Of a stretch of DNA of 64,000 bases, positions 45,494 to 62,872 are shown in pieces. The stretch comes from Planctomycetota bacterium. Lineage in GTDB: Bacteria; Planctomycetota; SZUA-567; H5-PLA8. Each line of letters starts with the position of its first letter. Position 1 is the stretch's first letter. The notes below the pieces were generated by a model, which ran no database searches, was not told where the DNA came from, and saw only the letters and a program-made list of their open reading frames with translations. The stretch is from contig JBBRPR010000002.1 of assembly GCA_038227875.1 (NCBI GenBank), positions 224,001-288,000 of the forward strand, written 5' to 3'. The translations under genes and the position numbers were made by a program.

Positions 45494-47416
45494 CTACGCG
45501 TCCACCGGCTGCTGTAACTGCGCTAGAACCTTACGCGCAAAATTTCGGACCAGCGCGCGCGGATCGTCGGCGTGGCGTTGCGCACAGGCGAGGGCTTCGG
45601 CGTCGGCGCCCCACTTGGCGAGCACCGGCGCGGCGGCGAGATCGATCTCGAAGCGCCGGTCGTCGGAGATCGGCGCGCCGTAGGCGCCCATGCTGTTTTG
45701 CAGGACCAGCTTCGTGTCGACCTTCAGCGCGATGGCGGCGCGCACGGCTTCGAGCGCTTCTTCCTTCGTGGCGACGCGACCCAGCGCGTGAATCGCGGTG
45801 ACGATCTTGCGATGCGTCGGCGCACCGTCAGTCAGCAGGCCCAGGGTCAGATCAATCGACTTCGTTTCGCGGAGGCCGAGGAAGTCGAGCAGGTAGAACG
45901 CGCCGAGGTAGCGTTCCAGTTCGCGGTTGTGGACCGCTTTGTCTGCTCGGCGGCTGAGCACCACGGCTTTCAGCACGTCCACGCCATCGGTGATTTTCTG
46001 CAGTGCGAGCACGGAGGCAGCCATCAGGCGCTGGTCGTCGACGCCGTCACGGACCGCGGCTTTGAGTTCTGCTTGAGCCGCGGCGCCGCGCTGAACAAGT
46101 TCGCAAATCGCATGCGATTCACGCGGCGAACCGAAGAGCTTCAGCAGTCCGGCGACGTCGGTCTTCTTCAGTTCGTCGTTGGGCGGAAGGATGCTGCCCA
46201 GTCCGGTTCCCGAGAGGACTTCTTCCGGCAGCGCGTTGCGTTCGACCAGGCGCTTCTGCACGGCGGAGACGTTGACCTTGCGCACGGTGGTCTTCGATGC
46301 GATCGCGACTTTCGCGGCGACGGCCGCGGATTCGCCGAGCGCCTGGATATCGCGCTGCATGCGGAAAAGCTGATGCGCATCATGCGTCATGCCGACGGCG
46401 CGGCAGGCGACAAGGAGATTGTCGACGACCTTCGGCACCTGGCAGCGGTACGGCACGTCGTGGCTCATTTGCTGATGCCACGCGTTGAAGCCGCCGATCC
46501 ACAGTTGCGCGTCGCGGGATTCGTTCTCGTAGTCGAAAGCATGGTTGTCGTAGTGCGCTTTGGCGCGCGTGACGACATCGGGAAAACGGCGCGCCTGCTG
46601 CTGGTCTTCGAGCGTGACCACGTATTCGGCGTCGATAAAGCGGCTCTCGCGCAGACCCAGGATCGGCGAGACGTAGATCATGCGCGACGCGGCGTCGTAG
46701 CTGTTGCGCGCCAGGTGCGAGCGGCCGAGAACCTGCGCGCGGGACTGGTCGAGCGCGTTGGTCGGGTCGACGTAACCGGCGTCGAAATTCCGGAAGGAGA
46801 CCGATTCGTTGTTCTGCACCAGGCCCGGCGCGAGGCTGTAGGGCTGCGGGGCGTGGTCGCCTTCACGGCCGAAGTTGAACGGCGCGCCCGCGGCGGCGGC
46901 GACATCGGCGTCGCCGGTGCAGTCGATAACGACGCGCGCTTCGAGCCAGAAGATGCCGTGATCGTTTTCGGCGACGATGCCCTTCAACGCATTACCGTCA
47001 AGCACCGCTCCGACGAAAAAGCTGCGGTAGAAACACTGCACGCCGGCTTCGTCGGCCAATTCCTGGAGCGCGAGTTTCTTGGATTCGGGATGGAAGCCGC
47101 TGGCCTTACCGCCGATGCGCGCGGTCCATGCGGCGGTGCGCTGGTCGATCTCGTGCTGAATGCCGGTCTGGATGCCGTGGTAGTACATGTGGATGCCGCC
47201 GCCGGTGCCGATGCCGCCGAGAAAGCTCTGCGGTTCGACCACCGCTGTCTTGAGGCCTTCCTGCCCCGCGACAATCGCGGCGGGCGCGCCGCCGGTGCCG
47301 CCGCCGACCACGACGACGTCGAACGTGCCGAGCTTCGGAATCAGCGCGACGTCCAGTGTGGCAAGTCCGCGCGCGTCGCTCGTGGGAAGTTGGTTGGTGC
47401 GTACGGTCAAATTCAT
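45494..47416 (-). CDS. FAD-dependent oxidoreductase with helical C-terminal extension
   Basis: DVVVVGGGTGG, LGGIGT.G, VIDCTGDADVA, LRESR, VPYRC.VP...DNLLVACR. Confidence 0.87.
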   Translation of the reverse strand: MNLTVRTNQLPTSDARGLATLDVALIPKLGTFDVVVVGGGTGGAPAAIVAGQEGLKTAVVEPQSFLGGIGTGGGIHMYYHGIQTGIQHEIDQRTAAWTARIGGKASGFHPESKKLALQELADEAGVQCFYRSFFVGAVLDGNALKGIVAENDHGIFWLEARVVIDCTGDADVAAAAGAPFNFGREGDHAPQPYSLAPGLVQNNESVSFRNFDAGYVDPTNALDQSRAQVLGRSHLARNSYDAASRMIYVSPILGLRESRFIDAEYVVTLEDQQQARRFPDVVTRAKAHYDNHAFDYENESRDAQLWIGGFNAWHQQMSHDVPYRCQVPKVVDNLLVACRAVGMTHDAHQLFRMQRDIQALGESAAVAAKVAIASKTTVRKVNVSAVQKRLVERNALPEEVLSGTGLGSILPPNDELKKTDVAGLLKLFGSPRESHAICELVQRGAAAQAELKAAVRDGVDDQRLMAASVLALQKITDGVDVLKAVVLSRRADKAVHNRELERYLGAFYLLDFLGLRETKSIDLTLGLLTDGAPTHRKIVTAIHALGRVATKEEALEAVRAAIALKVDTKLVLQNSMGAYGAPISDDRRFEIDLAAAPVLAKWGADAEALACAQRHADDPRALVRNFARKVLAQLQQPVDA

Positions 47417-47446
47417 CGCAAGATCCTCAATTCGAATCCAAGGAGT

Positions 47447-47472
47447 ACCCCAGGGTAAATTTACCCTAGGGT
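47447..47472. repeat. AAATTT-centred palindrome, copy 5
   Basis: ACCCCAGGGT-AAATTT-ACCCTAGGGT, one mismatch. Confidence 0.85.
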
Positions 47473-47481
47473 CGGGTTGTC

Positions 47482-48390
47482 TCAGGCGTTGACGCGCAAT
47501 TCCGCGATCGCGCGCGTGGCAGCTTGCGCGCCGAGCGCAACGCGCTCCTGCAACGAGGGCTTTTTGCCCAGTACGCGCGGTCCGGCGACGAACACGTTTT
47601 CGGCGAGCTTCGAAAGGTCGAGCTTTTCCGGGTTGAGCACGAACGACTCGTGCGCGCTGAGCGCCAGCGATGCTTTTTCGAAGCCGGGAACCTTGCGCAG
47701 CGCCTCGATGGTGCGGGCGAGCGCGAAGCGCACCGTGGATTCGGCGGCGAGCGCGCTGGACGTGTTGACGCTGACGCGGACGTGAGCTTCGTGCGGCCAG
47801 AGCGTTGGGCGCACTTCTGCTTTCGCGACGCCGTCGACATTCACGGTCGTCAGCGCGGTTGGCGTTTCCACGGCGCAGAGCAGGCAGGCGCGTTCGGTGC
47901 TGGTCGCAGTTGAGGTGTTCGATGCGCCGCCCACAAGCCGCGACGTCTCCGTCGCATCAATGAAGACGCGCGCCTGGACGGCGAGCGGGCCGGACTTGGT
48001 GGTGAGGCGCGCGAAGCCTTTCGCGGCATCGATGGCACCGGCGAAGGCGCGAAAATGCACGCGGACTTTTGCTTCCTGCATCATTTTGTCGAGCAGGCAT
48101 TCCAAGGCGACGGGATCGAAGATGCCATCGCGCGTGGCGTTCAGTGCGCTGAGGCGTTCGAGCATACGTTCCAACGCGCGCGGGATTTCGGCGCCACGTT
48201 CGAGGAACAGCTCCAAGCCGTGGGAAACTTCCCAGCCGAGCGCGCCGCGTTCTTCGATCAGGATGGTGTCTAGACCCGCGTCGGAGGCCGTCAGCGCCGC
48301 GGCAACGCCGGCGAGGCCACCACCGATGACGCACAGTTCGGCTTTGTCGAGAAGGGAAAGTTGGGACGTCAGGGAGACGGAATCAGCCAC
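47482..48390 (-). CDS. Short FAD-dependent oxidoreductase-like protein
   Basis: VIGGGLAGVAAA, IEERGALG, FIDAT, NVFVAG; GTG 48390 with AGGAGG SD. Confidence 0.78.
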   Translation of the reverse strand: MADSVSLTSQLSLLDKAELCVIGGGLAGVAAALTASDAGLDTILIEERGALGWEVSHGLELFLERGAEIPRALERMLERLSALNATRDGIFDPVALECLLDKMMQEAKVRVHFRAFAGAIDAAKGFARLTTKSGPLAVQARVFIDATETSRLVGGASNTSTATSTERACLLCAVETPTALTTVNVDGVAKAEVRPTLWPHEAHVRVSVNTSSALAAESTVRFALARTIEALRKVPGFEKASLALSAHESFVLNPEKLDLSKLAENVFVAGPRVLGKKPSLQERVALGAQAATRAIAELRVNA

Positions 48391-48582
48391 GTCGAACACC
48401 TCCTATAAGGGAGCGCTTGCGCGCGGATCATTCGTACAAGAGGCTTTATACGGCGAATTCCGCTGGGAACGTCTGCGTTATCGGTTGAAAACATGGCGAT
48501 TTCAGCTAATGTGAATAGCGCGTCACAGTGAGACGTCAGTCCCACGTGGACATTTCGAGGCGGAACGGGTAACGTACGAGCC

Positions 48583-48951
48583 ATGAAGACGGCGGGCATC
48601 ACACGCATGAAGGTCGGCGCACCGGTCGCGGTTCTTTTCGCGACGGTGGTCAATGCCGCGTCGGCGTGCGATCCGGCCGCGATGGCGTCGCTGCCGAAAA
48701 ATCCCGGCGCTCCCGATCTGTCGTGGGCTCTGCAGTGCGGCGCAACCAGCGCCCACAGCACGCGCACGCTGATCGCCAAGCGCGCGGCTTCCCAGATTCA
48801 GTCGATGGACCGGTACTTCGGCGCCGAGCCGGGATACCTGCTCCAGAACAGTGCTCCGATTCAGCGGGTGGAAGAGACGCGCGTCGTCAGCGTGGTTCTG
48901 CCGCCCAATCAACTCCACACCGAATCCACCCACCAGCACGCCGCTCCGTAG
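48583..48951 (+). CDS. Small signal-peptide protein upstream of secA; candidate SecM-like secretion monitor
   Basis: Basic n-region, hydrophobic GAPVAVLFATVV, ASA-C; ends HQHAAP-stop 135 nt before secA. Confidence 0.6.
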   Translation: MKTAGITRMKVGAPVAVLFATVVNAASACDPAAMASLPKNPGAPDLSWALQCGATSAHSTRTLIAKRAASQIQSMDRYFGAEPGYLLQNSAPIQRVEETRVVSVVLPPNQLHTESTHQHAAP

Positions 48952-49086
48952 TGCCGCTCCGGTAATTCCTTTTTGATGTTCGTACCGCATCGCGCGTGAG
49001 CGCGACGGTGTGAGCGTTGAATCGAATTGCCAACCCGTTTCCATTCAAACCACTACGAGCCGAGCGCAGAGCGGCAGGAGTTTAAC

Positions 49087-52000
49087 ATGATTGACACAGT
49101 CACCGAAATTGTTGGCAATGCCATTGGCACGATTTTCCCCTCGCGGTCCGCGAGCGTTTTGAAAAAGCTGCTTCCCCGCGTGGAACAGATCAACGCGATG
49201 GAGCCGAAGACCGCAAAGCTGACCGACGCGGAGCTGAAAGGCCGGACCGAGCATTTCCGCAAGGAGATCGCCGAGATCCGCGCCAAGAATCCCGATGCGG
49301 ACAAGAACGGGATGATTGAACGTTATCTCGATTCGATCGTGCCCGAAGCCTTCGCGCTGGTCCGCGAAGCGGGCAAGCGCGCGCTGGGCATGCGGCACTT
49401 CGATGTGCAGATGATCGGCGGCATGGTGCTTCACGGCCTGGCCTCTCCGATCAAGGAAAAGCAGAACCGCGGCATGATCTCCGAGATGGTGACCGGTGAA
49501 GGCAAGACGCTGGTTGCGTCGCTCCCCAGTTACCTCAATGCATTGCCGCGCCGCGAACACGAATACGCCTATGTTCACGTCGTCACTGTCAATGATTATC
49601 TGGCCAAACGTGACGCGGAGTGGAATCGGCCGCTGTTCGAATTGCTGGGTATGACCGTCGGCGCCATTCAGGGTTCGATGGATTCAGCGGACCGGCACCC
49701 GGCCTATGGCAGCGACATTGTTTACGGTACGAACGCCGAATTCGGCTTCGATTACCTCCGCGACAACATGAAGATGGACGCGGAAAAGCAGGTGCAGCAG
49801 ATGCGGCACTTCGCGATCGTCGACGAAGTCGATTCGATCCTGATCGACGAAGCGCGCACGCCGCTGATCATCTCCGGCGGCGCCGAAGAGGAGATCACCG
49901 AGCGCTACCTCACCGCCGCGAAGCTGGCCGAACATTTGAAGCCCACGCCGCTGTCGGAAATCGAACGCATCGAGGACCTGCGCCTGCAGGGCGTCTTCGA
50001 AGAACCGCAGTCGGGCCACTATGTCGTCGACGAGAAGGACCACACGGTGACGCTGACGGCCGAGGGTATCCGCGAAGCCGAGCGCGTGCTGCAGATCGAC
50101 AATTTTTACTCCGGCAAGCACATGGACTGGCCGCATTACATTTCCAACGCGCTCTCGGCCAAGGAACTCTATAAGAAGGAAGTGAAGTACGTCGTCCAGC
50201 AGAGCCGCAAGAACAAGATGGAAGTGCTGATCGTCGATGAATTCACCGGCCGCATCATGGACGGCCGGCGCTGGGCCGACGGCTTGCATCAGGCCGTTGA
50301 AGCGAAGGAAGTGCTGGCCGGCGAAAAGATCGAGATGGAAGCCGAGACGCACACGCTGGCGACGATCACGATTCAGAATTTCTTCAAGCTTTACAAGAAA
50401 CTCGCCGGCATGACCGGAACGGCCGTCACCGAGTCGCGCGAGTTCGGGCAGATTTACAAGCTGGAAGTCGTCAGCATCCCCACCAATCGCCCGATGCGCC
50501 GCATCAACTACCCGGACGTGATCTACGGTTCGGAAAAAGAGAAGTGGGAAGCGATCTGCCTGGAGATCGAAGACGTCAACGCCACGGGGCGTCCGATCCT
50601 GGTCGGTACGACCTCGGTCGAAAAGTCGGAACTGCTGGCGGGCATGCTGGAACGCCGCGGCTACCGCGGACGCTTTGAAATTCTGAATGCCAAGCAGCAC
50701 GCGCGCGAAGCCGTGATCGTGGCCAAAGCCGGACACCTCGGCGCGATCACCGTCGCGACCAACATGGCCGGCCGCGGCACCGACATTCTGTTGGCGAATT
50801 TCACTTTCGCCGACATGGTCGCGCACTGGCAGAAGATTGGCCTGGCACCCAAGCAGTTCGACATCAACCGACCGCGCGAACAGCTGGAAGAACACCTGGT
50901 CGGTTTCTGGCTGAAGCATTTCAACGAGCAGTTGTTCAAGGACACGCCGCAGGAAAAGCGCCGCGAAGTGCTCGATAAGTGGTGCCGCGAAAACGGGCGC
51001 AACCCGCTCAAGCTTGCCGAGAGCGTCAAGGAACTCGGCGGCCTCCACATCATCGGCAGCGAACGTCACGAAGCGCGGCGCATCGACAATCAGTTGCGCG
51101 GCCGTTCGGGACGCCAGGGCGATCCGGGCAGCTCGCGCTTCTTCCTTTCGCTCGACGACGACCTGATGCGCATCTTCGCGAAGGATTGGGTGCGCGGATT
51201 CCTTGTCGCCAGCGGCATGAAGGACGGCGTGCCTCTGGAATCGCGCATGGTCAGCCGCTCGATTGAAAAAGCGCAGCGCCGCGTCGAGGAACATCACTTC
51301 GGGACGCGCAAACGGCTGCTGGAATACGACGAAGTCAACAACGAGCAGCGTAAGCTGGTCTACAGCCTGCGCCAGAAGGTGCTCGAATCGCGCGAACTGA
51401 AAGAGACCATGATCGACTGGGTCGAAGATGTGATCGCGATGGCGATGGAACGCGAAATCGGTATCCAGGATCCGCCGCCGCCCAGCGCGCTGGTGAGCCT
51501 CGCCACGTGGGCGAAGCGCAAGTTCGGCATCGAGATCACGCCGCAGGAACTCGGCGACAAGTCGCCCGATGAAGTCGAGAAGCACCTGATGGACCGCATC
51601 CGCACGCTTTACAACGAGCGCGACGTACAGCTTGGCGAAGTCGAAACGTTCAAGGACAAGACGCTGCATTACACCGAAGCCGAACGCAATCTCCCGCCCG
51701 AACAGCTGGTGGAAGTCTGCAAGAAGAAGATGGCCGAGGCGATCGGCCTCGACGATCCGTCCAAGGTGGAATTTGACGCCGCGCGGGTGGCCGAGGGTTA
51801 CGTGCCGGGATACGTGCGCATTCCGCAGAAGGACCGCAAGATGCGCCTGCTGGAACGCTTCCTGTTCCTCGACATCATCGACACGAAGTGGAAGGACCAC
51901 CTGCGCAACATGGACAGTCTGCGCGAAGGCATTTACCTCCGCGGCTACGCGCAGCGCGATCCGAAGCTCGAATTCAAGCGCGAAGGCTTCAAACTCTTCG

Positions 52001-52416
52001 AAGACATGTTCGCCTCAATGAAGGAACAGGCGACGGACATGATTTTGAAGATGCAGGTCAGCGAGGAAGTCGAGAAACAGGAAGTCGCGTCGGTCTGGAA
52101 CGAAGAGCAAGCGCAGACGATCCATCAGGAAGCCAGCAGCGCGTTCTCCGGAGCGCCCGCGGAAGCGGCGGCTCCGGCCGGCGGCGGCTCGGCCGAGATG
52201 GAAGCGCAAAGCGAACACGGCGGCGAGAAGCTCAAGCCCGTCGAAACGATCCGCAAAACCACGCGCGTGGCCGGCCCGAACGACCCGTGCCCGTGCGGCT
52301 CAGGCAAGAAGTATAAGAAATGCCACGGCCGCACCGGCGGAGACATCGACGACCTGATCGCCGATCGCGGTCAGAGCAAGAAGGAACACAAGGGCGAGGT
52401 ACGTCTCGGCGGCTGA
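49087..52416 (+). CDS. secA: Preprotein translocase ATPase SecA
   Basis: [83 protein letters not shown]. Confidence 0.98.
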
Positions 52417-52502: not shown

Positions 52503-54179
52503 TCACTTCACTGGCATGCCGAGAATACTTTCCGTCTCCAGATCCTTGCCGTTTGAATTCACGATCCGTCCGACCGTGCGGTTTTTCTTCAGGAAGTACT
52601 TTTGCGCCACGGCGGTCACCTGCTCGGGCGTCACGGCGCTGATCTGCTGGATCTCCTTGAACAGATCGTGCCAGTCGCCGGTGATCGCCTGATAGTCGGC
52701 CAGCTCCTGCGCCAGGCCCATGTTCGAGCGCAGCTTGCGGAGCACGTCGGCGCGGTAGCGCGTCACCACACGCTGCAGCTCTTCGTTGCTGGGCGTTTCG
52801 GTTTTCAGCTTCTCGATTTCCGCCAGCAATACCGTTTCCAGTTCGTCGGCGCTCTGACCTTCGGACGGCTCGCCGTTGAAGAAGAAGAGGCGCGGGTAGC
52901 GCGCACCCGGTCCCATCCATGAGCCGATGTTGTTGGCCTTGCGCGCTTTCACCAGATGCGTGTACATCCGCGAGGCATGTCCGCTGGTGGCGATTTCGTC
53001 GAGCACCGTCAGCGCGGCGTTGTCGGGATGGTTGCGCTCGGGAATGTGGTAGCCGATCATCAGCGCCGGTTGCGCGGGGAATTCGACTTCAACACGGCGT
53101 TCGCCGTCCTGGGCCGGTTCGACGGTGACGAGCTTCTCCGGATCGGGCGCGGCGGGAATGCGGCCGAAATATTGCGTCAGCAGAGCCTTCGTGGCCGCGA
53201 CATCGATGTCCCCGACCACCACCACAATCGTATTGCTGGGCACGTAATGTTCGCGGTAGAAGCGCCGCACTTTTTCGCGGCTGTATTCGAGAATGTCGCT
53301 GCGCGCGCCGATCACCGCGGTACCGTACGGATGAGCCTGGTAGGCGGCGCCGAGGAATACTTCGTAAAGTTTGCCGAACGGGCTGGAATCGGTGCGCATG
53401 CGGCGCTCTTCCAGCACTACTTGCTTCTCTTTTTCGAGCTGGCGCGGGAAGGTGTTCATGTAGCGGTCGGATTCCAGCGCCGCCCACAGTTCCAGCTTGT
53501 TGGCCGGCAGCGAAACATGGTAGTCGGTGCAGTCGTCGCTCGTGAACGCGTTCAGGCCCGAACCGCCGTTGCGGCCGATGATGTCCGAATACTGATTCTG
53601 CTCGACGTACTGCTCCGCGTTTTTCACCTTCTCGGCAAAAGTCTTCACCAGATCGCCGAGCTGCGCCTTGTCCTCGTCCTTAAGCTTCACGCCGTCCTTG
53701 GCCCACTTCGCCGCCAGCGCGTCGACGCTCTTGGCGTACGCGTCGGGATTGCCGCCGGTGCTGGTGACCTGCGCGAGCAGCGAAAGAAATCCATCGCGCA
53801 TGTCGGCGGGGAGCTTCTGTTCGAAGTTCTGAATCTTTTCGTAGAGTTTGTCGATCTCCGCGACGGCTGTCTGTTCCAGCGCGAAGTTCTTCGTGCCGAC
53901 GTACGGCGTTCCTTTAAAGGCGAGGTGTTCGAGCTGGTGCGCGATGCCGGTGATGCCGACGTGCTCGTCGACGGAGCCGGTCTTTACATACGTGACGCAG
54001 GAGATCACCGGCGCCGCGCCGCGCGAATACAGGATGATCGTCAGGCCGTTGTCGAGCTTGAAGGACGTGATCTTGTTCTGAATGTCCGCGAATTCTTCCT
54101 CGGCAGCGGTGCAGCAGGAGAACGAGTGCGTGGCAAGCGCCAGAACGATCGCCGCGAGTGCCCGAAAATTCCGCATCAC
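52503..54179 (-). CDS. M16 family (insulinase-like) exported zinc peptidase
   Basis: Signal peptide, LDNGL, GSVDE, HQLEH (HxxEH), LNAFTS.D, VVLEERRMR. Confidence 0.92.
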   Translation of the reverse strand: MMRNFRALAAIVLALATHSFSCCTAAEEEFADIQNKITSFKLDNGLTIILYSRGAAPVISCVTYVKTGSVDEHVGITGIAHQLEHLAFKGTPYVGTKNFALEQTAVAEIDKLYEKIQNFEQKLPADMRDGFLSLLAQVTSTGGNPDAYAKSVDALAAKWAKDGVKLKDEDKAQLGDLVKTFAEKVKNAEQYVEQNQYSDIIGRNGGSGLNAFTSDDCTDYHVSLPANKLELWAALESDRYMNTFPRQLEKEKQVVLEERRMRTDSSPFGKLYEVFLGAAYQAHPYGTAVIGARSDILEYSREKVRRFYREHYVPSNTIVVVVGDIDVAATKALLTQYFGRIPAAPDPEKLVTVEPAQDGERRVEVEFPAQPALMIGYHIPERNHPDNAALTVLDEIATSGHASRMYTHLVKARKANNIGSWMGPGARYPRLFFFNGEPSEGQSADELETVLLAEIEKLKTETPSNEELQRVVTRYRADVLRKLRSNMGLAQELADYQAITGDWHDLFKEIQQISAVTPEQVTAVAQKYFLKKNRTVGRIVNSNGKDLETESILGMPVK

Positions 54180-62024: not shown

Positions 62025-62417
62025 GTGGCAGATTCAAACAACACCACCGCAACACAAGGCACACCCAGCCCCGCGACTGGCACCGGAACGGGCACAGGCA
62101 CAGGCGGCGCCGGACAGGGAGCTGGCTCGCCGTTCGATCCAGGCATGCTGCTGATGTTCGGTTCGATGGCGATCTTGTTCTGGCTGTTCATCGTCCGCCC
62201 GGAAAAGAAACGTCAGAAGGAAAAAGAAGCACTCACCTCCTCGCTGAAAAAGAGCGATAAAGTCGTCACGATCTTCGGCATGTACGGCACGATCGTCGAC
62301 ATCGACGGCGAAGACATCACGCTGATGGTCGATCAGAAGAAGGAAGTCAAGATGCGCGTGCGGCGCAGCGCGATCGACCAGGTCCTGGTCGAGGAAACGA
62401 AGGAATCCAGGAAGTGA
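62025..62417 (+). CDS. yajC: Preprotein translocase subunit YajC
   Basis: TM followed by RPEKKRQKE...LKKSDKVVT..GMYGTIV. Confidence 0.95.
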   Translation: MADSNNTTATQGTPSPATGTGTGTGTGGAGQGAGSPFDPGMLLMFGSMAILFWLFIVRPEKKRQKEKEALTSSLKKSDKVVTIFGMYGTIVDIDGEDITLMVDQKKEVKMRVRRSAIDQVLVEETKESRK

Positions 62418-62872
62418 AGCAGTCCGACGCCAAGACTACTGGCCGCGCCATTCCGCTGTTCTCCGCGGTCGCGGCGTTGATGTCGCTGCTGACGGCCGCC
62501 GCTGGGCCGTTCTCGCAGACCGTCAAAGTGGTTCGCGTCGACTCCGCCACGCCGGAAAACCGGACCGGCGACTTCGAGCTGGAAATCAGCGCCATCGATC
62601 TGGCGCCAAAGCCGGAAGACACCTCTTCAAAGCCGAAGCAGCAGACGCATTCGCAGTCCGCGCCGGAGAAGTCCGCGAAGATCGTGCAGCCGCTCAGCGG
62701 CCATTGGGAATCGGCGGCGCAGATCGACCTGCCGGTGGCCGACGTTCCCGCCGCGACGCCGCTGGTCTCACCCACGTGGATCCACGCAAGCAGCACCGAC
62801 GTTCCGAACACTGCAGTTGTCTCCTCGCACCAGGCGCCGATCAAAGCCGGGCGCGCTCCGCCGTACATCTAG
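62414..62872 (+). CDS. Signal-peptide protein with C-terminal RAPP motif; candidate translation-arrest secretion monitor of secD(F)
   Basis: GTG overlaps the yajC stop (GTGA); signal RAIPLFSAVAALMSLLTAAA; ends APIKAGRAPPYI-stop. Confidence 0.75.
   Translation: MKQSDAKTTGRAIPLFSAVAALMSLLTAAAGPFSQTVKVVRVDSATPENRTGDFELEISAIDLAPKPEDTSSKPKQQTHSQSAPEKSAKIVQPLSGHWESAAQIDLPVADVPAATPLVSPTWIHASSTDVPNTAVVSSHQAPIKAGRAPPYI

Follow-up and report, generated by a model that had tools for sequence, protein, structure and literature searches.

Directly upstream of secA, a 122-codon open reading frame (uORF; 48583..48951, + strand, as are all the features of the uORF–secA region given below) is, as far as comparison of sequences can establish, a conserved gene of one Planctomycetota family, and we consider it probable that its product is a termination-stage arrest peptide (stalling at a Pro codon followed directly by the stop codon, Pro-stop) which would monitor secretion and raise SecA when export falters. 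The conservation of the uORF, its synteny with secA, selection at both the peptide and the RNA levels, and complementarity between the two genes were all observed, and constitute the basis of this proposal. Positions refer to the window, by which we mean the whole 64,000-nt stretch of DNA that was analysed.

The uORF and its predicted product

The uORF starts with the ATG at 48583 and ends, after the tail ...STHQHAAP, with a TAG at 48949..48951 immediately after the Pro, which codon constitutes the proposed stall site, with the stop in the A site. The gap to secA (49087..52416; ATG at 49087; 1109 aa) measures 135 nt (48952-49086), and the product of the latter gene scored 1002 bits against NF009538 (cutoff, 814) and matched the SecA_DEAD, P-loop_SecA, SecA_SW, SecA_PP_bind, and SEC-C domains. 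This layout—a 122-aa ORF with a signal-like N-terminus and a ...THQHAAP end, 135 nt before secA—had been described in an earlier note on this DNA, and was confirmed from the sequence. The GC3 of the uORF was 0.80 versus 0.61 for the antisense ORF, and its product matched 0 Pfam families (E up to 0.01) and 0 NCBIfam families.

The N-terminal region (residues 1-28; 48583..48666) resembles a signal peptide, with basic K/R residues, the hydrophobic run GAPVAVLFATVV, and then AASA (A-x-A), and carries the family-conserved pattern R/K-x-GAPA...LA..V. A 12-aa hydrophobic window (mean Kyte-Doolittle of at least 1.8) was present in 49 of 54 members of the uORF family, and AlphaFold2 predicted a helix at residues 13-28. 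We accordingly speak of a signal-like N-terminus and take it as a putative localisation signal, the type of which is presumed; a lipoprotein reading of the string ASAC was discarded because the Cys varies among orthologues. Further along lies a conserved middle segment (residues 45-80; 48715..48822) of the form DLSWAL.GGAT...R..LA..AA..I..LD, predicted to be one long helix (AlphaFold2 helix 47-80, block pLDDT ~85), and then a spacer without conserved columns (residues 81-114; 48823..48924) that is predicted to be disordered, the ~35 residues before the tail being hypervariable across the family. From the hydrophobic window to the C-terminus the family members have a median of 95 residues (range 22-121, the minimum coming from N-terminally truncated entries), and the spacer between the signal and the proposed arrest site exceeds 30 residues.

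Distribution and the conserved C-terminal tail

The uORF was found directly upstream of secA and on the same strand in 15 of the 20 genomes of the order, all 15 from one family, which count—14 loci recovered by profile plus a divergent one in genome G007 by inspection—overstates the independence of the observations, as do all counts across these loci, since the orthologues are related. In the 15 genomic and 10 metagenomic loci secA begins 69-169 nt downstream; on metagenome contigs the uORF precedes secA in 10 of 11, the eleventh contig ending too early to tell, so that all loci open to assessment show the uORF adjoining secA. The uORF is missing ahead of secA in one member of the family, G005. 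A profile search of 62 genomes of the class yielded no uORF relative beyond the one family, the matches outside it being weak (E of at least 0.0165) and none lying on a contig where secA was found. Against the genome contigs, the single uORF protein as a query gave no match and a 5-row alignment gave 4 loci, all already known.

The tail of the window's uORF, S-T-H-Q-H-A-A-P (48925..48948), has the family form S-[TS]-H-Q-x-[SA]-A-P. In a sample of 57 cluster representatives (clustering at 50% identity; 54 full-length), the end Q-x-[S/A/N]-A-P was present in 54, and Q(-5), A(-2), and P(-1) were invariant in all 54 of the full-length representatives, where S(-8) occurred in 46, H(-6) in 40, and position -3 was occupied by S in 40, A in 13, and N in 1. 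The genomic loci all end in [SA]-A-P (15/15) and the metagenomic loci in Q-[HQ]-[SA]-A-P (11/11), and in every one of them the AP directly abuts the stop codon, which constancy fits a stall at Pro-stop. The synteny and the C-terminal conservation that the earlier note had proposed as checks on its reading were thereby both found, and of its HAAP-stop end the Pro-stop part stood, whereas HAAP itself is not conserved, the motif being Q-x-[S/A]-A-P-stop. The codons, for their part, vary: all four are used for Ala(-2) and all four for Pro(-1), Ser(-3) is encoded by TCC, TCA, or AGC, and the first 14 genomic loci end in TAA (9), TAG (4), or TGA (1). Because the tail varies synonymously and all three stops occur, the peptide is under selection. 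The uORF is the only one of the genome's 16,869 crude ORFs (100 aa or longer) that ends in Q-x-[SAN]-A-P.

These data bear on another reading, which we judge unlikely, in which the uORF product is an ordinary small exported periplasmic protein sharing the secA operon, whose tail would function once the chain has been released—for instance, as a recognition tag—without any programmed arrest. The strict adjacency to secA in all assessable loci argues against such a role, as do the lack of any Pfam or NCBIfam family and a mature part predicted to comprise one helix plus a disordered and hypervariable chain, even though the conserved 35-residue helix, which arrest alone would not need, speaks in its favour. 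Ends in AP-stop, moreover, are not avoided in the genome (116 ORFs vs 97 expected), and the arrest is so far a prediction; nevertheless, invariance within the tail is confined to the final residues preceding the stop, which location fits an element acting in the tunnel and peptidyl-transferase centre, and a rare-codon bias that makes an anti-SD in the final codons (described below) would be meaningless for a protein tag.

Putative promoter and predicted transcript start

Upstream of the uORF we noted a -35-like box, TGGACA (48547..48552), and a -10-like box, TAACGT (48570..48575), which ends 7 nt before the uORF ATG. With a script, a hexamer of the TGGAC/TGGAA type followed by a 16-18 nt spacer and TAnnnT was found in 12 of the 15 orthologous loci, and the other three fit by eye: L006 with TTGAAA-N17-TATACA, and L010 and L011 if the start is taken as the second ATG. 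The -10 box of the orthologues ends 6-10 nt before the uORF ATG. A scan for consensus promoters returned 0 sites, the promoter emerging only on alignment of the orthologues. The uORF is preceded by no SD, and this arrangement predicts a leaderless or near-leaderless uORF mRNA, with the transcription start deduced from the position of the boxes.

Predicted pairing between the uORF end and the secA SD

In the window, every complementarity between the uORF and the secA initiation region that the earlier note had listed was recovered: GCTCCGTAGTG (48943-53) with CACTACGAGC (49051-60), with one bulge; TGCCGCTC (48952-59) with GAGCGGCA (49069-76); CTGCCGC (48898-904) with GCGGCAG (49071-77); and AACTCC (48911-16) with GGAGTT (49077-82). 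The anti-SD element, GCUCC[GUAG]UGCCGCUC (48943..48959), falls within the stretch that a ribosome halted at the stop would cover, and belongs to a 9-nt direct repeat, GCCGCTCCG (48940-48 and 48953-61). Its partner is GAGCGGCA together with the secA SD GGAG(U) (49069..49081), with the SD at 49077-80, 6 nt before the ATG. The calculated energy of the duplex GCUCC[GUAG]UGCCGCUC x GAGCGGCA-GGAGU (49069-81) was -22.3 kcal/mol, which value surpassed those of 84/84 other uORF windows, 25/25 intergenic windows, and 299/300 shuffles. At the base of a long imperfect intergenic hairpin (48940..49075), the end of the uORF is brought together with the nucleotides that immediately precede the secA SD; the segment 48931-49100 has an MFE of -60.8 kcal/mol (z = -3.5; 0/200 shuffles fold as well), and that fold leaves the SD unpaired. 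In the ensemble fold of the window the SD pairs with AACUCC at 48911-16, which bases lie beyond the stall footprint, 33-38 nt ahead of the stop codon. A search against Rfam gave 0 matches (E up to 1).

Across the orthologues, CTCC—encoding the anti-SD core CUCC—occurs within the last 5 codons plus the stop in 10 of 15 loci, against 2.66 +/- 1.44 expected on synonymous resampling, with 0 of 5000 resamples reaching 10 loci. Counted by genus, 4 of 9 have CTCC, another 4 lack it, and in the remaining one it occurs in one of two genomes. At Ala(-2), 7 of 15 orthologues use the rare codon GCT, versus 12% elsewhere. This bias indicates that, to judge from codon choice, the final uORF codons are under RNA-level selection beside the selection on the peptide.

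The predicted structures were less uniform. The SD is predicted to be paired inside the 31-nt footprint (P of at least 0.5) in 12 of 22 non-redundant loci, and its masking by the stall site in 7 of the 15 genomic loci; in these models, masking of the SD by the stall site is not general across loci. The duplex energy ranked against other uORF windows had a median of 0.32 and was at most 0.05 in 2 of 15 loci; against shuffles it was at most 0.05 in 3 of 15. As a general proof of anti-SD pairing we rejected this test, which gave significant ranks only for the window (0.00) and L008 (0.04). When the 5' part was masked, the predicted accessibility of the SD rose in 10 of 14 loci and fell in 4, and it exceeded 0.5 in only 4 of the 14. 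The anti-SD pairing put forward in the earlier note, then, was borne out by the CTCC enrichment and by the duplex in the window, but not as a masking by the stall site in all loci, that being predicted in only the 12 of 22.

The absence of predicted SD masking in about half of the loci would also be compatible with an arrest peptide that acts on transcription, where the ribosome stalled at the stop blocks the loading of Rho or a downstream terminator hairpin in the manner of TnaC/tnaAB. TnaC acts through Rho. The Pro-stop, termination-stage stall resembles that of TnaC (PMC8450073), and a weak hairpin with a T-rich tail occurs in the window right after the stop (48952-48974), but the terminator-like sites there number 2 versus 1.0 +/- 1.0 in shuffles. 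A hairpin plus a U-run is found in the intergenic region of L066, and marginal instances occur in the L003/L069 and L063-65 group, a group with weak SDs and without CTCC; terminator-like elements are nonetheless missing from the intergenic region in 19 of 25 loci, so that we rejected attenuation as a general explanation, and with the CTCC enrichment pointing to the SD we hold an action on transcription to be quite improbable. Least of all do we favour an RNA-only device, in which the uORF 3' end is kept as an anti-SD and any passing ribosome briefly opens the secA SD by translational coupling, with neither stall nor export sensing: the CTCC enrichment, the rare GCT codon, and the strong duplex in the window would suit such a device, but the amino acids are kept through synonymous changes that include switches of serine from TCN to AGC, Q(-5) (CAG or CAA) is invariant and lies outside the anti-SD, 5 of the 15 loci lack CTCC yet retain the peptide motif, and the signal peptide and the spacer of >30 aa are conserved.

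A proposed mechanism

The reading we prefer is that of a Pro-stop arrest peptide controlling translation of secA; in this model we infer the arrest, its release by export, and its effect on secA. The uORF would be cotranscribed with secA from the conserved promoter, as an apparently leaderless first cistron, and its product, a nascent chain exported by Sec, would act as a sensor, or "monitoring substrate," for SecA. Once the stop codon has reached the A site, peptide release would be slowed by the invariant end Q-x-[S/A]-A-P. If export is working, SecA and SecYEG would capture the signal peptide, exposed ~95 residues upstream, and exert a pull on the chain, upon which the arrest would be quickly over, the ribosome would leave, and the intergenic RNA would refold, with the last uORF codons and the CUCC-containing bases after the stop pairing with the SD region of secA so as to keep its translation low. 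If export is slow, the stalled ribosome would cover ~48931-48961, the SD region would stay open, and more SecA would be made.

A more elaborate version, which we offer as a tentative possibility only, is a dual-coded, lineage-specific switch, where the Ser/Ala-Ala-Pro-stop codons (preferentially xCC-GCU-CCN) would be at once a termination-jamming peptide and a secA-silencing anti-SD on a leaderless mRNA, the 35-residue helix would tune the SecA-dependent release, and the system would have arisen independently in Planctomycetota, its x-A-P end converging on the RAPP and NAP-stop peptides. Peptide and anti-SD constraints fall on the same codons, an overlap that offers a compact, testable model of the wiring between sensor and secA.

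Comparison with known arrest peptides

Few examples of gene control by a nascent protein still inside the ribosome are as clear as the secretion monitors. The criteria for monitoring substrates of Sec/YidC, set by Sakiyama (2021) and Fujiwara (2024), apply to an ORF directly upstream of secA, secDF, or yidC; the four features used in silico (PMC10987492), namely, no annotated function, an N-terminal signal, a conserved C-terminus, and a spacer of >30 aa, are all found in the uORF.

A Pro-stop monitor is not unprecedented as a kind, having been described in Bacteroidota, where uORFs of this type upstream of secA and secDF halt the ribosome once the stop codon occupies the A site and need positions -5, -3, and -1 (PMC10987492); clusters with a C-terminal Pro are reported exclusively from that phylum (Fujiwara et al., 2024, PMC10987492). 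Like uA_NSP-stop (Sphingobacteriaceae) and uDF_NAP-stop (Bacteroidota), the uORF lies upstream of a sec gene—secA or secDF in those instances—and has an N-terminal signal, a long spacer, and a conserved C-terminal Pro directly before the stop; P0053, a member of the uORF family, even ends in N-A-P, as does NAP-stop. The important positions differ, however, being -5, -3, and -1 there and the invariant -5, -2, and -1 here, and whereas uA_NSP-stop has K at -5 and an essential N at -3, the uORF family has Q and S or A, respectively, so that neither the Asn(-3) needed by the Bacteroidota Pro-stop peptides nor the Lys(-5) needed by uA_NSP-stop is its pattern (PMC10987492). The uORF family (Planctomycetota) is set apart from those of Bacteroidota by phylum and motif. 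The strings HQHSAP, HQHAAP, RQTSAP, and DLSWAL gave 0 occurrences in 12 supplement files of PMC10987492, one of these available in part, and in the accessible portions of the literature on Pro-stop and planctomycete secA arrest peptides the uORF family is not described. If the proposal is true, this would be a second, unrelated Pro-stop family, with Pro-stop arrest having arisen repeatedly, and Q-x-S/A-A-P-stop would be a new sequence for structural study of how a nascent chain blocks release factors.

SecM of Gammaproteobacteria is likewise an exported product encoded upstream of secA, with a proline at the stall point (in the uORF, the proposed one), and a ribosome arrested on it is believed to unfold the RNA that occludes the secA ribosome-binding site (PMC12856214). 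SecM, though, stalls during elongation, when the A site holds Pro-tRNA and further codons are still to come, whereas in the uORF the stop directly follows the Pro. Neither the SecM profile nor a RAGP-ending arrest motif matched the uORF (Pfam, E up to 0.01), whose tail is THQHAAP. The earlier note's view of an independently evolved SecM analogue thus gains support, because the lack of SecM similarity (0 Pfam, 0 NCBIfam) fits an independent origin.

The RAPP/RQH family (ApdA, ApdP, uA_RQH, and uDF_RQH; PMC7897499, PMC10987492) shares with the uORF a location upstream of sec genes and an x-A-P end, but no second Pro follows in the uORF, a release factor rather than Pro-tRNA would occupy the A site, and position -3 is S or A instead of R, Q, or H. 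The motifs [RQH]-[AG]-P-P, RAGP, and RAPG are absent from the uORF, and in a motif scan of the window all RAPP-like ends belonged to other ORFs. Planctomycetota are also the phylum of uA_LPPP (Phycisphaerales, UBA1161, WQYP01; PMC10987492), which is likewise encoded ahead of secA, yet its motif (LPPP/xPPP in the last 15 residues) is absent from the aligned uORF tails, the window's uORF carrying only an unconserved LPPN; homology with uA_LPPP or with other secA uORFs of the class was rejected, with no LPPP-type ORF before secA in 3 distant loci. TnaC resembles the uORF in having a C-terminal Pro followed by a stop-codon stall (proposed for the uORF) and in controlling a downstream gene, but TnaC needs free tryptophan and a UGA/RF2 context, whereas the uORF family uses all three stops and has a signal peptide (PMC8450073, PMC11890864).

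A second candidate monitor

Between yajC and secD lies another ORF (62414-62872) with the end ...GRAPPYI. The earlier note had taken it together with the uORF as two separate monitors, and had remarked that both tails contain His-Gln; this is true in the window, but the dipeptide is found in 0 of 3 orthologues of the RAPP ORF, and we regard the shared His-Gln as coincidental. Those three orthologues end in RGPP or CGPP, which ends, with the location between yajC and secD, make it plausible that the genome has two monitors, one for SecA and one for SecDF, which pair, if real, would occur in a phylum whose protein export has been little studied.

A conserved reading frame upstream of secA

The secA gene (ATG at 49087, + strand; SD GGAG at 49077–49080) encodes 1109 amino acids, and its product matched all the SecA Pfam domains and scored 1002 bits against NF009538 (cutoff 814). 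Upstream on the same strand, across an intergenic region of 135 nt, lies an ORF—hereafter uORF—that extends from an ATG at 48583 to a TAG at 48949–48951 and encodes 122 amino acids (MKTAGITRMKVGAPVAVLFATVVNAASA...STHQHAAP). Since the gene 5' of uORF (47482–48399) occupies the opposite strand, uORF and secA form a separate unit. The surroundings comprise two divergent FAD-dependent oxidoreductase-family genes upstream (45494–48399, − strand) and a convergent M16 peptidase-family gene downstream of secA (52503–54179, − strand), none with an evident link to that unit.

A search with the uORF protein alone retrieved relatives in 11 other genomes, all of the same family-level group, within Planctomycetota, while a 12-sequence profile, run against 20 genomes of the order, found uORF in 14: in the window genome and in 13 of the 16 others of its family (f1), but in neither of the two of f3 nor in the single one of f2. 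In another genome, G007, inspection of the DNA upstream of secA revealed, 71 nt from that gene, a divergent ORF that begins like a signal sequence and closes with ...SSPTAAP-stop. In the f1 member G005 (83% complete; locus L032) uORF is missing and a sucD-like (succinyl-CoA-ligase-alpha-like) gene at 424–1386 directly precedes secA, which starts at 1501; that arrangement suggests that this lineage lost uORF or was rearranged here. G016 and G019 yielded no secA, and no uORF-type ORF preceded secA in the unpublished genome G017, in the 437 nt readable in G018, or in four f5 genomes. When the profile was run against 62 genomes of the class, matches outside f1 were no better than E = 0.0165, and none of these weak matches shared a contig with a detected secA. 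In all 15 genomic loci uORF is on the secA strand, 69–169 nt upstream, and a scan of metagenome contigs added 11 loci, all with the conserved tail and 10 with secA downstream, the eleventh contig stopping 104 nt past the uORF stop. We regard uORF as a genuine gene, conserved and linked to secA.

In the 15 orthologous loci a TGGACA-like box can be recognized, followed after ca. 17 nt by a TAnnnT-like box that ends 6–10 nt before the uORF ATG (12 loci by script, the remaining three by reading); in the window these boxes are TGGACA at 48547–48552 and TAACGT at 48570–48575, and a consensus promoter scan there returned no promoter. Because the boxes end so close to the ATG and no SD precedes uORF in the orthologous loci, we predict a leaderless or near-leaderless uORF-secA transcript.

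Protein family and invariant end

A search of 1.84 billion representatives yielded 57 proteins at E values up to 0.001, mostly of 107–139 amino acids, with a layout in four parts: a basic and hydrophobic N-terminus (predicted helix 13–28; AlphaFold2, 56-row alignment, mean pLDDT 69); a conserved segment, DLSWAL.GGAT...R..LA..AA..I..LD, for which a single extended helix is predicted (47–80, pLDDT ca. 85); a hypervariable, disordered spacer; and an invariant end. The end Q-x-[S/A/N]-A-P is present in 54 of the 57, the three exceptions being matched by the profile in the N-terminal part only. Counting back from the stop, all 54 have Q(−5), A(−2), and P(−1); S(−8) and H(−6) occur in 46 and 40, respectively, and position −3 is taken by S (40), A (13), or N (1). 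The window genome has 16,869 crude ORFs that encode 100 or more amino acids, among which uORF alone ends in this way, against a chance expectation of 0.65.

The codons beneath that end vary among 14 orthologues: Ala(−2) is encoded by GCT (7), GCC (1), GCA (1), or GCG (5); Pro(−1) by CCG (6), CCC (2), CCA (1), or CCT (5); Ser(−3) by TCC, TCA, or AGC; and Q(−5) by CAG or CAA, which pattern points to selection at the peptide level. The stop—TAA in nine, TAG in four, TGA in one—always directly follows Pro, and, its identity being free, the feature cannot rely on a single release factor.

The most likely reading, which we consider fairly probable, is that uORF is a termination-stage arrest peptide that would monitor export and control secA translation through the SD region. 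An ordinary exported protein is an alternative that we hold to be unlikely. Arrest alone does not account for why a monitor would keep the 35-residue segment with a predicted helix (uORF residues 45–80; 48715–48822) just after the signal peptide; according to PMC10987492, spacers can contain additional regulatory elements, SecM and VemP being examples, which is a precedent for such a helix.

Fujiwara et al. (2024; PMC10987492) screened more than 30,000 genomes with four criteria—no annotated function, an N-terminal localization signal, a conserved C-terminus, and a spacer of more than 30 amino acids—all of which apply to uORF. Two of the peptides described there, uA_NSP-stop from Sphingobacteriaceae and uDF_NAP-stop from Bacteroidota, have Pro as the last residue before the stop; they arrest while the stop codon occupies the A site, and the arrest depends on that codon as well as on residues −5, −3, and −1. 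According to that article, clusters with a C-terminal Pro were encountered in Bacteroidota exclusively, and its sole Planctomycetota entry is uA_LPPP, from three orders other than that of the window; the motif strings of the uORF family have no occurrence in 12 of its supplement files (one of them truncated), nor did the sources covered by a full-text literature search describe the family. We liken uORF to SecM in logic and to the NSP/NAP-stop peptides in chemistry, though it is probably homologous to neither. At the proposed stall the peptidyl end would be x-A-P, as in RAPP (R-A-P/P) and NAP-stop.

Proposed coupling to secA at the RNA level

The same arrest might instead act on transcription, which alternative we regard as quite improbable. 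A weak hairpin of five pairs followed by ATTCCTTTTT (48952–48974), directly 3' of the uORF stop, is terminator-like by consensus scan; but its type is not commoner than in shuffles and is not conserved, the window scan gave two such sites versus 1.0 expected, and 19 of 25 loci have no terminator-like element in the intergenic region.

With respect to translation, the earlier note had listed four complementarities between the uORF 3' region and the secA initiation region, every one of which we recovered at the positions given there. The stretch formed by the last five codons and the stop contains CTCC, the complement of the SD core, in 10 of 15 orthologues (2.66 ± 1.44 expected from same-gene synonymous resampling; 0 of 5000 resamples reached 10), though these loci are related: of nine genera, four have CTCC, a fifth has it in one of its two genomes, and four lack it. 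The rare codon GCT encodes Ala(−2) in 7 of 15, compared with 12% of Ala codons elsewhere in the uORFs and 9% in long ORFs of the window genome. Both biases argue for selection at the RNA level too in the uORF tail.

The uORF stop TAG in the window is flanked by the two copies of a 9-nt direct repeat, GCCGCTCCG (48940–48948 and 48953–48961), each complementary to GAGCGGC at 49069–49075, next to the SD. The best duplex between the SD region and the 31-nt footprint that a ribosome stalled at the uORF stop would have, GCUCC[GUAG]UGCCGCUC with GAGCGGCA-GGAGU, has 13 pairs (−22.3 kcal/mol) and surpassed 84/84 other uORF windows, 25/25 intergenic windows, and 299/300 shuffles; and 48931–49100 folds into a long hairpin (−60.8 kcal/mol, z = −3.5) unequaled in 200 shuffles. 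In that shorter fold, however, the SD is unpaired, while in the window ensemble it pairs with AACUCC at 48911–48916, outside the footprint, which itself pairs just 5' of the SD. Among the genomic loci, 7 of 15 are predicted to pair the SD inside the footprint (P ≥ 0.5), as are 5 of 7 non-redundant metagenomic ones; the duplex test gave a rank of 0.05 or lower in only 2 of 15. When the 5' part was masked in silico, the SD was predicted to become more accessible in 10 of 14 loci, though accessibility exceeded 0.5 in only four. As modeled, these results count against simple masking. An RNA-only coupling device, with which the CTCC bias would agree, seems to us the least probable alternative beside the constancy of the peptide end.

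One sub-lineage (L003, L069, and L063–L065) has tail codons without CTCC, a weak SD (AAAGG), and a mid-intergenic hairpin followed by a U-rich run, which features may represent a different way of coupling.

A second candidate between yajC and secD

The earlier note had also proposed two monitors, for SecA and for SecDF, and had remarked on a His-Gln in both tails. Between yajC (62025–62417) and secD (from 63027) there is an ORF of 152 amino acids (62414–62872, + strand) with a hydrophobic N-terminus and the end ...HQAPIKAGRAPPYI (KAGRAPPYI-stop). Its body is poorly conserved, since matches at E ≤ 0.01 came from only 4 of the order's 20 genomes, and the His-Gln resemblance is coincidental, His-Gln being absent from all three detectable orthologues. 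The proposal of two monitors is otherwise plausible: those orthologues, ending in CGPPA (G008), RGPPGLS (G001), and RGPPTLPS (G009), lie upstream of secD-like genes, and the ORF is a candidate SecDF monitor of the RAPP/RQH type.
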